Assembly: GCA_963810935.1 (NCBI GenBank)
Contig: CAWEPK010000007.1
Span: forward strand, 352,001 to 416,000
Origin: an uncultured delta proteobacterium
GTDB lineage: Bacteria > Desulfobacterota > Syntrophorhabdia > Syntrophorhabdales > WCHB1-27
Direction: 5' to 3'
Length of the DNA stretch: 64,000 nucleotides
The position numbers are program-made. Position 1 is the stretch's first letter, and every line of letters begins with the position of its first letter. Below, one piece after another: positions 24,001 through 30,000 of the stretch.

Positions 24001-27000
24001 CGAGTCCTCACTTGCCACCCGCGCCTGGCAAGCCCTGAGCGCGGGTACCCGGCTACCGTTTTATACGCTCCGGCTCTCGCCTTCGAAAAACAACGCGAAT
24101 TCCATCGAAAATCTCCGGCCGCCCGTTCAGTAGTGGGGCTATGCTGTATGGTTCTTCACGCGTATCGAATCTTTATACGTCGATTTCCCATTCGATAAGC
24201 CTGTGTTGAAAATAGTCCCTAAGCAGGGCCAGCCTTAATCCCCTTTTGGTATCATTGGTGCCTTTAAATATTTCGCAAAACTTAATAACGTTATCATACG
24301 CTTGCTTGACTGTCTCTTTGTCTACTCTGTTTTGCATCACCGATCTAAACGGTTGGCCGAGATAATCAACGGTAGGCCATCCGTCATCGTCAACCATCAG
24401 AAGATCAAGACAGATTCTGGCCGTGTCCGCGCTGACCGTATCATAAACGTTCTCGGGTCTGCGATTCAAAGTTTGTTGCAGGTAATCGATACAATTACGC
24501 CCCACAATGATCCTGGGATGTTGCGCTATTTTAGATTCAAGGATATAGGCCCTAGATAGACAGGCTCCATAAATCTCACCTTTTTCGATCTCCATTCCTA
24601 TTCCAATATCGATTCCACCTCTTACGGGATGCCCAGCCATAAGTGACAGAAGCGCGATTGACGACGCTGCGGTGAAGAGCCCGTAAACACCGCGCATTGG
24701 TGCCTTGTTACGATCAGTGGCCAAGGATGTGGATGCCACGACGCAGTCTGAAAATGATGCTATATGTATTGGATTATTAGTCATCAGGCTATACTGCTCA
24801 CGTTGTTCAGGGGAAAGCGCGCTCAAGTCGGTCTGTCGCAGAGTAGAAAAGGAATCAAAATAATGCCTAAACAGCTTTCTCGTGCCAGAAACAACGCCGT
24901 ACGTTTCTTTTAGGGCATGCACAAATGTCTCCATTTGTGCATTATCTTCTTTGTCGGGAAGGTCGTCCAAAGCCCTCAGATTCTCTTGTTGTCCGAGCAC
25001 GTCAATAAAACATACTGCATAGTAACCAACATTCATTTTGCTTTCCGCGTTAGTTTCTTTCACAATTACCCCTCCCCCACATACGTGTAGTAATGCTATT
25101 GTTTTACATAGCCCATTATGCCTGTCTGGAGACACAACGTGCAACAATAAAAATAGAATTATTGCCGTTTACTAGCACAGTGGTGGGGAGGGGCCGGGAG
25201 ATTTTCGATGATAGGCGCCGTGATCGAGGGGCCGCCGCCCGGAGCGTACGCAGTTGGTACGTGAGGACGCGCGAATCCGAGAGACAGGCGCATAGCGCGA
25301 AAAGATCCCGGCCCCTATGTCGGTCCGCCGAAGAGTTTTATTGTTTGACGGACCAGCCTAGGTAAGGACGGATCGCGCGCACCCATTATTATTATGGCAT
25401 CGCCGGGGCGCGCGTCGGCTTTCAGTATAGTCAGCAGATCATCCCTGTCTTTGATCGCTTTCGCCACAAACTCCGTCTCGCCCAGGGCCTCGACGATTTC
25501 TTCCGACGATATGTTTTTCTGCGCTGTCCCGCCCGCGTAATAAATGGGCAGCAAATACAGGGAATCGCCCGGCTGCATGGCGGCCCTGAACGCGGCTATG
25601 TATTCGTCCTTTAAAAAGCGCGTAGGGCCGAAGCCGTGGGGTTGGTAGACGGCGATGATGCGGGCGGACAACCCCTTTGCTGCGGTCAGCGCGGCCGTTA
25701 TTTTTGCCGGGTTGTGCGCGAAATCGTCGATCACACTTACGCGCCCTTTCGTCTGCGTAATGTCGAAGCGCCGCGCCGTCCCCGCAAAGCCCTTCACTGC
25801 CGCTGCCAGCCCTGCGCCGATGCAGCCGAGATATTCGCAGACGCAGAGCGCGGCTGCCAGGTTTTCGAGGTTGTGCCTGCCGGGTAAGGGCAGGTCGTAT
25901 CGGACGCCGCCTTTGACGAGGCGCACTGACGCGGGAAGCAGCTCGGTTGCGTCCGGCCGCCACCCGGCCGTAGCCGACGCCAGGCCGAAGCGCACCGTCG
26001 CAGGCAATGACGCGAGCACGGGGTCGTCCGCGTTCGTCGCGCTCCAGCGGGTGCGTGAAATGAGCGTCGCGAAAAGACCTTTCAGCTCATCGACGCCCTT
26101 GTGGTCTTTCGATACGTTGAGCACAACGGCCGCCTCCGGCGCATACTTGACGATGGTCCCGTCGCTCTCGTCCGCCTCGACGATCAAAAGGTCCGACGCG
26201 CCGCTCCACGCATTGCCGATAAGACCCTGCCTCTCGAGCCTTCTCAGGGGCGCGCCGCTTATAAGGGATGGCGATTTGCCGCACGCAGTCAGCAGGCTCG
26301 AAGACGATTGCCGTTACTGTCGATTTGCCGCTGGTGCCCGCCACGGCGACCGTCCGGCTCATGCCGATGATCGCTGCGAGCAGGTCCGAGCGGTGCACGA
26401 CGGGAGCGCCGCAGCGGGCCGCTGCCGCGATGTCGGGGTTCGTCTCTTCTATCGCGGTCGAGACGCAGACGATGTCCGTATCAAGCCCGACGCCGGAGCC
26501 GTCCTGGCCTGCGATGCGCACGCCGAGCGCTTCTAAGCTTGTGCGCATGGCTGCCGTGTCGTCGCTTGCCAGGAGGCGGTCTGAGCCGGACACAATGATG
26601 CCGAGGAACCGCAGGTATTGCGCCAGGGCGCTCATGCCTGTGCCGAAGATGCCCGTGAAATGGACGCTCCTTGCCTGCCGCCCGCCGATGCTCAATGCCG
26701 GGGGGTCGATGTAGACGAGCATGCCCTCTCGGGCGATATCGAAGAGGCGGACGACGTCGCTGTTGCGCAGCGCGATGCAGCCGTGGGTGAGCGGCGTCCC
26801 TATGAGGTCTTCCCGGTTCGTGCCGTGGATGTAAATATAACGATCGAAGGAATCGACACCGGGGCCTTTGTTGATCCCGACTTCTGCGCCTTCGAGCCGC
26901 ATGATGCGGCTGAGTATCAGGTTCTCTTCTGTCGATGCGCCGTCCCAGTCCGCGCCCGTATCCGCGCGGTCCCTGAAGACGCGGCCCAAAGGCGCGCCTG

Positions 27001-30000
27001 CGCCAATCTTCTCTTTGATGCGGTGGACGCCGGGCGGGGTCTTGAACGAATTCTCGCGGATGCCTGTGCCGAAGCGCGACGTCGACGCCGCATACCTCTC
27101 GATTATGCTGTCGCCGCGACAGACGAAAAGGGCCTGTGCCTCGACGGACTGGACGAGGTAGGTCTCGTCAGGGCGGGCCAAAAACGGCAGCAACCGGCCA
27201 TATATGCGTCTAAGCGCTGCAACTTGCGTGCGATCTGTTCCTTCCATTGACACGCCGTCAATATAGCGCAATTGGTCATCGGACCACAAGCAATCTTACG
27301 CCCATCGCCCCACTTGTTGTTGCTCTTGCGCAACTTGGGAATTAAGCTACGGGAATGCGGGCCTTCCTTAAGGGACAGGCCCAGTCCGCCTTGCGAGGAT
27401 GCAGATGACAACGAACAAATTGGTGAAGGCGATCGACGCGGCGGTCGATCTGGTCAACCATGGGCGTTACGGCGAGGCGGAGGCGCTTACGAAAAAGGTG
27501 ACGGCGCGCGTTCCCGGCAGCGGGATGGCCTGGAAGCTCCTCGGCGCGGTGCTCGCGATGCAGGGGAAGAACGAAGAAGCAGTCGATCCTCTGCGCAAAG
27601 CTGCCGCGTTCCTGCCGAACGACGTGGAGGCGCAGGCGAACCTGGGTGTAATCCTCCACGACCGGGGCCGGCCCGCCGAGGCAGAGGCGGCATACCGAAA
27701 GGCCCTCGCAATCAAGCCCGATTACGCAGAGGCCCGGAAAAACCTGACCGAAATTCTGGAGACACAGCACGAGCCGGCAGAGGAAGGCAAGTCAGGGGGA
27801 TAAAGTTAATACCCCCGGCATCCCGCATTACGTCGGAGTGCCGCCCGCGCTGTCCAACACCCGCCGTATCGCCCCTGCCATGACCTCTTTCGACACCGGC
27901 TTAATCAGAAACTCCCTCACGCCTGCTGCCAGCGCCTTCTCTTTCGACACCGACTCGCTGAACCCCGTGACGAGGATCACGGGTAAATCCTTGCGTATCT
28001 TCAGCACCTTCTTCGCAAGCTCGAAGCCGACCAGATCGGGCATCGTCTGGTCTGTTATCAAAAGATCGTACTGGTTCGGCGTCTGGAGGAAGATCTCGAA
28101 TGCGTCCAGGCCCTTCCTGGCCGTAGTGACGTCATAGCCCAGGCGCCGCAGCAGCAGGGCCCCCATCTCGACGACCGCGGGCTCGTCGTCAACGAAGAGT
28201 ATCCTTTCCGTTCCGCCCGGTATGTCGATCTTCTGCTCGGTTTCTTCCATCGGCGGCTCGGTGGATGGCAGAAAGACGGTGAACGTGGAGCCCTCGCCGA
28301 TTTTGCTGTCCACGGAGATCGCGCCCTGGTGGCTCTTGACGATGCCGTAGGCGACGGCCAGCCCCATGCCCGTCCCGTGCCCGGCGTCTTTCGTAGTGAA
28401 GAACGGCTCGAACATGCGTTTTTGCACGTCCTCGGGTATCCCGGCCCCCGTGTCCTTGACGCGCAGCTTTACGTACCCGCCGGGCTTCATGTCAACGTCC
28501 GGCAGCTTGTCGCGGCGCGTAAAGACCGCATCGGAGACGGCGATCAAAAGGCTCCCCCCGCCGGGCTGCATCGCGTGGGCTGCGTTGCCGGCGAGGTTCA
28601 TCAACACCTGTTGTACCTGGGAAGGGTCGCCGGCAATGTAGTCGTTCGCAGCGCGTATGTCGAGCTTCATCCGGATGGTGCTCGGCAGGGAGTTGCGGAG
28701 GAGCTTGAACGTCTCTTTGACGAGGGGGGTGAGCTGGAAGACGTTTTTGCCGCGCTCGCTCTTTCTGCTGAAGGTGAGGATCTGCTTGATCAGGTCGCGA
28801 GCCCGCTTGGACGCCTTTATCACCTGCTCTATGTTGCGTTTTGCATCGGTGCCGTCGAGGTCGTCGAGTGCCAGCTCCGAATTTCCCAGGATGACTGCGA
28901 GCATGTTGTTGAAGTCGTGGGCGATGCCGCCCGCGAGGGTGCCTATGGCCTCCATCTTCTGCTTCTGGCGAAGCTGCTGCTCGATCTCCAGTTGTCTCGT
29001 GATGTCCCTGTCTACCCCGACATACTGGATGGTCGTCCCGTACTTGTCGCGAATAGGCACTAGGGTCGTCTCGATCTCTACGAGGGTGCCGTCTTGCTTC
29101 TTTCGGGTCTGGCGCCCGGTCCATGTATTCCCTGCAAGCAGCTCGGAATATATGGCCTCGTGAAACGAGTCGGGGTGGGCGTCGCTGCGGGTCATGACAG
29201 GGCTGTTCCCCACCATCTCGTCAGCCGTATAGCCGTACATCCTGGCGAATGCTGAATTGACGTAGGTGTACCGCCTGTCGGGGGAGAGCATGAAAATGCC
29301 GTCGCCCGCGTGCTCCACGGCGGAAAGGAGCTTCGCCATCTCTTCCTGCATTTTTTTACGCTGTGTGACGTCCCTGGCTATGCCGTGTATGCCGGTGACG
29401 ACGCCGTCCTCGCGCATAAAGCGCGCCGTGACCTCGAGGCTGACGAGGTTGCCGTCCTTCGTCCACGCCTCGAAATCCCACGGCTGTTCGTCGGGCAGGT
29501 CTGAGTTGGCGGCGACTGCGCGCCGCAAAACGTCGGCCGCCCGCCCGGCGCTCTCGGGCGTAAGGAGGTCCCCGATGGACAGGTGTTGAACGGGCTTACC
29601 AGGAAGGAAAACCTCGGCCGCTTTCCGGTTGGCCGAAGTAATCCTGCCTTCGAGATCGGTCGTGAATATCACGTCGTTTGCCTGGTTGAAGAGGTCCTTA
29701 TACCTTGCCTCGGACCTTTGAAGCGACGTGTAAACCGTCTCCAGCTCCTGCGTCCTGTCGCGGACCCTCTCCTCCAGCCCGTCTCTCGCTTTGCGAACCT
29801 CCTCCTCCGCACGCTTGCGGTCGGTTATATCCATGTTGATGCCGATCAGTTTTTCGGGCCTTCCCTTCTCATCCATGATGGCGCGGGCGCGGGCGTGGAG
29901 CCACCGCATTTCGCCGGTATCCAGGCGGCGGACCCTGAAATCGACCTTAAACTCATCCCCTTTCAATGCCTGGTCCACGGCGGCACGGCACAGTGCGCGG

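Follow-up and report, generated by a model that had tools for sequence, protein, structure and literature searches.

A leaderless ElsL-type YkuD domain fused to a MurC-related ligase in an uncultured delta proteobacterium, and its probable role in murein peptide recycling

Introduction

The window analysed here, 64,000 nucleotides from an uncultured delta proteobacterium of the Syntrophorhabdales, carries a single gene that joins a leaderless YkuD domain of the ElsL type to a ligase related to MurC. The ligase belongs to a clade of its own, which is repeatedly tied to L,D-carboxypeptidases. Judged from sequence and gene neighbourhood, the fusion probably trims a tetrapeptide and ligates the tripeptide to UDP-MurNAc.

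Bacteria without a recognisable Mpl are assumed to degrade recycled stem peptides to amino acids, as a recent study states for Caulobacter and "many other" species (10.1101/2025.10.15.682734). If the clade ligates peptides, reuse of the intact peptide would also take in Syntrophorhabdales, Nitrospirota, Fibrobacterota, Bacteroidota, Elusimicrobiota and parts of Alphaproteobacteria, groups in which its gene carries a wrong annotation as MurC. With both steps in a single chain, the steps and their order could be assayed in one protein. No description of the fusion or of the ligase clade was found in the literature listings searched, which cover few subscription papers.

The gene and its reading frame

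The gene is occupied by two overlapping ORFs on the minus strand (Table 1). In Pfam, the upstream ORF contains YkuD (aa 30-180, E 5e-18) and Mur_ligase (aa 195-294), and the downstream ORF contains Mur_ligase_M and Mur_ligase_C. A 1925-nt alignment to the congener G002 (92.5% at the nucleotide level) has a single gap, which corresponds to one extra C in the window. This base is missing from the contigs of all four public runs compared (two studies), and three run-contig pieces of 588, 129, and 330 nt match the window except for it. The true gene is therefore intact, and the ORF split is confirmed as an assembly error in one 643-aa gene, much as the earlier note had described (one ~640-aa gene split by an indel). 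A true pseudogene or a pair of genes is ruled out by the congener alignment and the read contigs. The intact congener protein is P0001.

Table 1. Features of the fusion gene, with positions in the window.
Feature	Position	Strand	Basis or remark
Whole gene, ElsL-type L,D-carboxypeptidase (predicted) and MurC-related ligase fusion	25315..27247	-	643 aa, extra base disregarded
Leaderless YkuD domain, ElsL type (aa 30-180)	26708..27160	-	PF03734; best NCBIfam NF040925 ElsL, 118 bits
Catalytic motif His141-Gly142 to His155-Gly156-Cys157	26777..26827	-	Sequence; H141, G142, G156, and C157 invariant in 41 sequences
Ligase N-terminal (UDP-MurNAc-binding) domain, glycine loop GIFGTGM	26366..26665	-	PF01225, aa 195-294
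P-loop GTSGKST; third position is His in MurC and Mpl	26318..26338	-	Motif comparison
Extra C behind the apparent frameshift	26295..26296	-	Congener alignment and public-run contigs; assembly error
Ligase middle (ATP) and C-terminal (amino-acid or peptide-binding) domains	25318..26294	-	PF08245, PF02875; AlphaFold congener model
DDFAHNP; Asn at the MurC His348 position	25708..25728	-	Alignment
QPHGFGP; Gly and Pro at the MurC Arg377 and Arg380 positions	25624..25644	-	Alignment
GARD; family-specific Arg versus GAG in MurC	25372..25383	-	154/154 family rows versus 0/21 MurC and 0/7 Mpl

The ElsL-type YkuD domain

The best family for the domain is ElsL (NF040925), although its score is below the cut-off of 270 bits. 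This cut-off appears narrow, and it is reached in none of 101 gammaproteobacterial genomes (118-207 bits). The three other YkuD proteins of the genome gave no ElsL match in the profile search. It aligns collinearly with ElsL-like proteins of Gammaproteobacteria (35-41% identity), and 19 residues, three of them arginines, are invariant. The catalytic His141 and Cys157 are intact and are kept in 119 of 120 homologues. By a crude hydropathy measure, an N-terminal hydrophobic stretch is absent (at most 1.7 in 121 proteins, against 2.4-2.6 in two exported controls), and with it any signal peptide or membrane anchor of the domain. The signal-less YkuD domain with an intact His-Gly-Cys motif that the earlier note had reported is thus borne out. 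A close solved structure was not found for this domain, whose structural match is limited to the motif region.

ElsL (LdtK) of Acinetobacter baumannii (NF040925, PMC8649774) is likewise a leaderless YkuD protein with the His/Cys motif, and it represents the best-scoring family. The domain described here differs in being joined to a ligase, in scoring below the model cut-off, and in lacking a basic residue at Cys+2. Among 24 ElsL-like proteins of Gammaproteobacteria this residue is Arg in 21 and Lys in 3, whereas all 118 of 118 close fusions lack it. The orthologue set of Dai et al. 2021 (PMC8649774) consists of stand-alone proteins of 105-200 aa and left out matches above 200 aa, so that a 643-aa fusion falls outside it. 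Because the domain is of the ElsL type and the ligase family pairs interchangeably with ElsL or S66 LdcA, assignment of the N-terminal half as a putative leaderless L,D-carboxypeptidase, as previously proposed, is well supported.

The ligase domain

The congener protein scores 281 bits with the MurC model TIGR01082 (cut-off 335) and 105 bits with the Mpl model TIGR01081 (cut-off 389), while the genome's own murC, a housekeeping gene that lies on contig C5 within the dcw cluster, reaches 557 bits with the former. The earlier note was correct in reporting a complete MurC/Mpl-type ligase in addition to this housekeeping gene. The AlphaFold model of the congener protein has a pLDDT of 94, and its best structural match is MurC 1p31.

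The ATP/Mg residues of H. influenzae MurC (Lys129, Thr130, Glu173, and His198) correspond to K308, S309 (Ser for Thr), E357, and H382, all at least 90% conserved. The amino acid is bound in MurC by Arg380 and His348, and also by His376 and Arg377 (Das 2011, PMC3060825). Among these four L-Ala-binding residues, His376 is the sole one kept; Arg380 and His348 are each found in 0 of 154 family rows, as against 21 of 21 MurC. The motifs given for Mpl in the same study, GI(C/G)GTFM, (S/T)AFFDKRSK, EPRSNT, and SNG, are also missing: AFFDK occurs in 0 of 83 family rows (7/7 in Mpl) and GTFM in 0 of 83, and EPRSNT and SNG are absent as well.

MurC (TIGR01082; H. influenzae 1p31/1p3d) is the closest relative in sequence and fold (target TM 0.85) and shares the ATP/Mg Lys, Glu, and His as well as EADESD. 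The fusion ligase differs from it in the subthreshold score, the replacement of Arg377, Arg380, and His348, GARD in place of GAG, and a location outside the dcw cluster. With Mpl (TIGR01081; PMC3060825) it has in common the three-domain Mur ligase architecture beside a housekeeping MurC, DDFAH, the loss of the MurC Arg380, and the reaction proposed; it is set apart by score, missing motifs, a separate clade, and the physical pairing with a carboxypeptidase. The ligase thus falls outside the definitions of both enzymes and forms its own clade, marked by GTSGKST, DDFAHNP, QPHG[FY]GP, and GARD. Of the earlier suggestion of an Mpl-type ligase, an Mpl-like role is the most likely reading, but the protein is not Mpl itself.

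Phylogeny and carboxypeptidase partners

In FastTree and LG+G4 quick trees, the ligase clade is not nested in Mpl. A sister relation to Mpl is neither supported nor rejected (AU p 0.42), and the best tree joins the clade with MurC at support 86. The fused forms make up two subclades, and joining them is rejected by the AU test (p 6e-35; the groups were chosen once a first tree had been seen).

Among 80 GTDB loci of the clade, the ligase is fused to an ElsL-like domain in 32 and has one directly upstream in 11, while an adjoining ElsL-like gene is missing at 37. In P0126 the ligase is fused to S66 LdcA, which is unrelated to ElsL, and at locus L103 an S66 LdcA lies directly downstream. In another branch an S66 gene is directly upstream in 64 of the 66 loci with enough flank, and 15 of 15 tested belong to Pfam S66. 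The clade is thus repeatedly tied to L,D-carboxypeptidases, ElsL or S66 LdcA interchangeably. At locus L054 the ligase is flanked by a YkfC-like peptidase (directly upstream) and an amidase; no recycling neighbour was seen among the flanking genes scanned at the Bacteroidota loci. A canonical MurC accompanies the clade in this genome and also in 9 of 10 distant genomes that carry it, which makes the ligase dispensable there for the addition of L-Ala.

A branch with a sole MurC-like gene

In the GTDB family of an uncultured Elusimicrobium (G137), 59 of 61 genomes have a single MurC-like gene, none of the MurC-like genes in the 61 genomes scores like a typical canonical MurC, and all 30 that were fetched are members of the ligase clade. 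MurD is still present in 60 of the 61. Since the only MurC-like gene occurs with MurD, the clade can probably add L-Ala, and do so without Arg380; the loss of the MurC arginines is then weakened as an argument and is no proof of a peptide substrate. The caveat of the earlier note, that the ligase could be a MurC paralogue with another specificity, accordingly has real weight, as this one branch fills the MurC slot. S66 was found in 1 of 41 genomes of the family and YkuD loci in 9 of 41; none of 8 fetched YkuD loci is ElsL-like. The pocket of the sole copies reads QPHA-x-x-S in 28 of 30, and GARD is kept in 30 of 30. G156, the one S66-bearing genome of this branch, keeps QPHGYAP. How a recycling ligase could come to replace an essential enzyme that is also a drug target can be studied in this branch as a natural test case.

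Strict exclusion between the ligase clade and Mpl does not hold, as one MAG (G031) has both; its copy of the ligase is sister to an Elusimicrobia sequence.

Recycling genes in this genome and its relatives

Neither Mpl nor S66 LdcA was found in this genome, which upholds the previously reported absence of the latter. S66 LdcA is present in 6 of the 31 genomes searched, five of which also have the fusion (one broken), and a strict exclusion between fusion and LdcA is therefore rejected. AmpG and a leaderless DUF1460 amidase each occur in 30 of 31 genomes; they are at most 300 nt apart in 10 of 29 and at most 7 kb apart in 17 of 29. The classical AmpD/NagZ/AnmK route is rejected, with AmpD in 1 of 31, GH3 in 1 of 31, and AnmK not found in the search of this genome. 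The single Amidase_3 of the genome has a signal-like N-terminus. The DUF1460 amidase is the likely supplier of peptide in place of AmpD; the earlier note had named no amidase. The six relatives without the fusion mostly retain AmpG and the amidase.

YkfC and an Ala-Glu epimerase are encoded here as well; they make up a catabolic branch which needs no ligase. All three enzyme families of the Bacteroides AmiA (DUF1460)/YkfC/epimerase pathway, for which Xu et al. 2015 (PMC4600125) proposed a periplasmic location and a catabolic role, are thus represented. In contrast to that route, the amidase here is leaderless and in many relatives lies beside ampG, and the ligase could return the peptide intact.

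Proposed mechanism and alternatives

From the gene, its domains and motifs, the clade, and the neighbourhoods, we infer the following enzymatic steps. AmpG, given its presence, would import GlcNAc-anhMurNAc-tetrapeptide, and the leaderless DUF1460/AmiA-like cysteine amidase may free the peptide, as suggested by the activity of Bacteroides AmiA and the linkage to ampG. The ElsL-type domain would then take off the terminal D-Ala, in line with its family, the intact His/Cys, and the interchange with S66 LdcA; its substrate could be the free peptide, the muropeptide, or, after ligation, UDP-MurNAc-tetrapeptide. With ATP and Mg, the ligase would couple L-Ala-D-Glu-mDAP to UDP-MurNAc, to be followed by MurF, and its specificity is probably wide enough to include L-Ala too. 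The toxicity of elsL is suppressed by loss of mpl (Dai 2021, PMC8649774), so that coupling of the two steps would make sense, and the fusion would prevent the making of toxic tetrapeptide precursors. A more far-reaching proposal, which we regard as quite possible but short of probable, is that a third UDP-MurNAc ligase clade, found across eight or more phyla, acts as a bifunctional peptide/L-Ala ligase that forms, with ElsL or S66 (three or more fusion events), AmpG, and cytoplasmic DUF1460, a recycling route independent of AmpD, NagZ, and Mpl, and that it has replaced MurC in the Elusimicrobium-containing family.

It is unlikely, though worth serious consideration, that the ligase merely accompanies L,D-carboxypeptidases in a co-regulated wall-maintenance module without using their product. 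Such a module would agree with the sole MurC-like gene and kept MurD of the Elusimicrobium-containing family, the GARD retained in its sole copies, the nearness of the ligase to MurC in HMM score, sequence, and fold, and its place in the best tree. Yet it would leave unexplained why the clade has repeatedly become fused or linked to carboxypeptidases of two unrelated kinds, and the ligase would be redundant with canonical murC elsewhere. In the sole copies, moreover, the pocket is altered where the carboxypeptidase is mostly gone, and the S66-bearing G156 keeps QPHGYAP. Takeover of the MurC slot by a recycling ligase also has a precedent, since E. coli mpl, when overexpressed, reportedly complements murC(ts) (Das 2011, PMC3060825).

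The two remaining alternatives change the substrate or the chemistry. A dipeptide substrate, by which MurC and MurD would be bypassed, could be reconciled with the YkfC of this genome, with the YkfC-like gene directly upstream of the ligase in L054, and with a pocket unlike that of Mpl, an enzyme that strongly favours the mDAP tripeptide (Das 2011, PMC3060825); we consider it improbable, as the constant partner is a carboxypeptidase, YkfC flanks the ligase once in 80 loci, and the Ala-Glu epimerase is present to use up the dipeptide. The YkuD domain of this subclade could instead be a cytoplasmic L,D-transpeptidase that swaps the fourth residue, for precursor editing and no recycling. The lost basic residue at Cys+2 and the missed NF040925 cut-off (118 vs 270) would fit; the collinearity with ElsL-like proteins and their invariant residues, the failure of gammaproteobacterial genomes to reach the same cut-off, and the S66 hydrolases standing in for the domain in other branches make this very improbable. 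The observations counted against trimming and ligation by the fusion are the sole-copy branch, which speaks above all against a ligase for peptides only, the MurC-nearer sequence and fold, the lack of Mpl motifs, the 37 loci without an ElsL-like neighbour, the Bacteroidota loci without a recycling neighbour among the flanking genes scanned, the YkfC and epimerase branch, the six fusion-less relatives, the Cys+2 residue loss, and the Mpl-bearing G031.

Distribution of the fusion

The fused frame is intact in 22 of 30 relatives, broken in two (G010 and G026), and not found in six; within the family, the counts are 15 intact of 18, one broken, and two not found. Of these 22 intact frames, 20 were checked for the presence of both domains, and G022 and G024 are counted by open-frame length alone. 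The genome and database sets are our own and differ from those behind the 17/21 genomes and 617 clusters of the earlier note. All 120 database matches listed have PF03734, PF01225, PF08245, and PF02875, as stated before. The motif counts shift slightly, from HG..HGC in 112/120 and GTSGKST in 120/120 to HG..GC in 119/120 (HGC in 108 of the 118 listed homologues with the usual spacing) and GTSGKST in 119/120. The fusion had been placed in Syntrophorhabdales, Syntrophus, and Nitrospirota; it is real, but its range is wider, with a second fused subclade in Eisenbacteria and Alphaproteobacteria.

Some candidates were set aside. An apparent ElsL fusion of 628 aa from a gammaproteobacterium (L194) seems to be a GC-rich open frame that is not translated. 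The long entries P0122, P0125, P0127, P0129, P0130, P0133, and P0134 have N-terminal extensions without a Pfam domain above threshold, which we read as probable antisense of the adjoining S66 gene, as in the DNA of relatives.

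The fused gene

The YkuD-ligase fusion is real, conserved and intact. Two overlapping minus-strand frames lie at its coordinates, and an extra C at 26295-26296 is the sole gap in a 1925-nt alignment with the congener genome G002. This base is missing from the contigs of all four sequencing runs checked (4/4), and three of these contigs match the window at every other position. One run, X5, belongs to a second study; the best run may come from the sample that was itself assembled. Therefore, the gene is intact at 643 aa, as the earlier note had proposed for a gene of ~640 aa split by an indel. 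At least one further frame split of the same kind, in ampG, is present in the assembly. Among 30 relatives, the fused frame is intact in 22, broken in 2 and not found in 6. Syntrophorhabdus, Syntrophus and Nitrospirota are among the named database matches, matching the distribution previously claimed.

Coordinates of the features (window positions unless a contig or locus is named)
Feature	Position	Strand	Remarks
First frame of the fusion	starts ATG 27247	minus	YkuD domain (aa 30-180) and N-terminal Mur ligase domain
Second frame of the fusion	ends 25315	minus	middle and C-terminal Mur domains
Dispersed intergenic repeat, inverted GGGGCCGGGA-type ends	21635-21768, 23955-24120, 25189-25315, 33156-33288, 39340-39475, 53333-53503		130-170 nt
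294-aa gene	24173-25057	minus	45% GC vs 61% in window
Second dispersed repeat family	4991-5133		up to 42 overlapping matches across genome
Ala-Glu epimerase to ampG	G000 (host genome) C8:694963-704241		ampG frameshifted in assembly
YkfC-like peptidase	G000 C3:47540-48445
DUF1460 amidase and nagA-like gene	G000 C12:415480-417151; locus L157:6481-8152

The YkuD domain

The top NCBIfam family of the YkuD domain is ElsL, an L,D-carboxypeptidase of cytoplasmic peptide recycling (118 bits, vs 21 for L,D-transpeptidase models), and the three other YkuD proteins of the genome have no ElsL match. The score is below the ElsL cut-off of 270 bits, which is reached by 0/101 gammaproteobacterial genomes (a tally including G074, marked unpublished), 74 of which have matches at 118-207 bits. 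Over its whole length, the domain can be aligned with 20 gammaproteobacterial ElsL-like proteins at 35-41% identity with His141, Gly142, Gly156 and Cys157 invariant, and crude hydropathy reveals no apparent leader, in agreement with its description as a signal-less YkuD domain with an intact His-Gly-Cys motif. The residue at Cys+2 is basic in 24/24 ElsL-like gammaproteobacterial proteins examined, whereas 118/118 close fusions have Ala, Cys, Val or Thr at this position; a second fused subclade keeps Arg. According to Dai et al. 2021 (PMC8649774), ElsL has a demonstrated activity, elsL toxicity is suppressed by loss of mpl or ampG, and the list of ElsL orthologues left out proteins >200 aa. Judged by sequence, the domain is of ElsL type, outside the published stand-alone definition.

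The ligase

The ligase scores 281 bits on the murC model (cut-off 335) and 105 on the mpl model (cut-off 389). It is additional to the housekeeping MurC, as had been noted, since the latter is encoded separately in the dcw cluster (557 bits). The congener protein was modelled with AlphaFold (pLDDT 94, pTM 0.91); the top match of the model is MurC 1p31, with Mpl 3hn7 weaker. The ATP and Mg residues of MurC are retained. The amino-acid binders of MurC are His348, His376, Arg377 and Arg380 according to Das et al. 2011 (PMC3060825). His348 and Arg380 are kept in 21/21 MurCs, whereas in the ligase clade His348 is replaced by Asn in 154/154 rows, Pro or Ser stands in place of Arg380, and the GARD motif contributes an Arg of its own (154 rows). 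Mpl motifs were not found in the clade, which separates from MurC and Mpl with support of 98 (FastTree, 93 rows) and 99 (IQ-TREE quick, 33 rows); either of the two may be its sister group. By their defining features, the ligase is neither Mpl nor MurC. A literature search of listings, with few subscription papers among them, turned up no publication that describes either the fusion or this clade.

Partners of the ligase clade

Among the best 80 of 556 GTDB loci, the ligase is fused to an ElsL-like domain in 32 (1 frameshifted), has one directly upstream in 11 and none adjoining in 37. One fused subclade (Syntrophorhabdales and Nitrospirota) is nested among unfused Fibrobacterota pairs, and the other comprises Eisenbacteria and Alphaproteobacteria. 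Joining them is rejected by the AU test (p 6e-35; groups named after the first tree). The most economical interpretation is that fusion happened twice; a single old fusion followed by several fissions is a possible alternative.

The unrelated L,D-carboxypeptidase S66 LdcA is found in the place of ElsL in three arrangements: fused to the C-terminus of the ligase in database cluster P0126 (one cluster, 11 sequences, short contigs), directly downstream in one Latescibacterota genome, and divergent and upstream in 64/66 loci of another branch whose flanking sequence reaches 500 nt or more. The 66 loci, drawn from 80 metagenome loci, are close kin that count as about one event; they are presumably sphingomonad, and 15/15 upstream genes tested are Pfam S66. 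One Elusimicrobia copy has a YkfC-like peptidase gene on one side and an amidase gene on the other, and the scanned genes flanking Bacteroidota copies are unrelated (146 neighbours scanned overall, with a single representative for each recurrent family). In the class of genome G034, a second MurC-like match has a scattered distribution (~17/151 genomes; matches not individually typed, and G240, marked unpublished, included). In seven alphaproteobacterial loci (L061, L063, L065, L067, L075, L077, L078), the fused gene has after it a convergent gene for a Scaffold plus YkuD L,D-transpeptidase (one representative scanned).

Function of the fusion

The fusion probably works like LdcA and Mpl in one chain. 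This proposal of the earlier note holds as the best reading, although the ligase is not Mpl by its defining features. That the clade members are plain alternative MurCs is unlikely, although a clade member is the only MurC-like gene in one family, which speaks against a simple recycling reading. In this family, that of the uncultured Elusimicrobium G137, 59/61 genomes have exactly one MurC-like gene (284-338 bits; the second match of G158 is murD), and no canonical murC was found in the 61. All 30 MurC-like genes fetched, like that of G137, belong to the clade (L093, L227-L256), often near murD and murE. MurD exceeds its cut-off in 60/61 genomes, and the usual number of Mur ligases in a genome is four. 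S66 occurs in 1/41 genomes and YkuD in 9/41, with no ElsL-like domain in the 8 YkuD loci fetched. From these results, the MurC step is most likely carried out by the clade member in this branch. The pocket motif of the branch is shifted to QPHA-x-x-S in 28/30, and QPHGYAP is kept in the single S66-bearing genome. According to Das et al. 2011 (PMC3060825), murC(ts) can be complemented by E. coli mpl when this is overexpressed; by that precedent, the sole copy may be read as a recycling ligase of broad range that has taken on the housekeeping role. Two Caulobacter papers (one 10.1101/2025.10.15.682734) give it as the current assumption that species without Mpl degrade stem peptides.

Recycling genes and neighbouring DNA

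Among 31 genomes, AmpG is present in 30, S66 in 6, and an AmpD-type amidase and GH3 in 1 each. AnmK, Mpl and LdcA were not found in the host genome (93% complete), so the reported lack of S66 LdcA stands for this genome and not for the lineage. A DUF1460/AmiA-like amidase, encoded in 30/31 genomes, is a candidate for the missing amidase step; no hydrophobic leader was found in 20 examined. It lies within 300 nt of ampG in 10/29 genomes and within 7 kb in 17/29; in genome G021 it is found downstream of the fusion, ~1.5 kb away. According to Xu 2015 (PMC4600125), Bacteroides AmiA cleaves GlcNAc-anhMurNAc-peptide, giving the disaccharide and the stem peptide.

In the host genome, the leaderless amidase gene and a nagA-like gene are divergently oriented, and genes for a HAD phosphatase and a phosphohexomutase are close by. 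In this lineage, which has no NagZ or AnmK, the neighbourhood may serve as a cluster for sugar recycling. YkfC and Ala-Glu epimerase are both encoded, pointing to a catabolic branch alongside recycling; E. coli likewise has one (MpaA and YcjG). The epimerase gene adjoins alanine racemase, ~7 kb from ampG, and the YkfC-like peptidase is encoded apart from this region.

Genome-wide, the GGGGCCGGGA-ended repeat gives up to 47 overlapping matches. The 294-aa gene, with no Pfam or NCBIfam match, lies between two copies and is missing from the corresponding position in congener locus L009. One copy of the repeat begins at the stop codon of the fusion, where it could act as a terminator.
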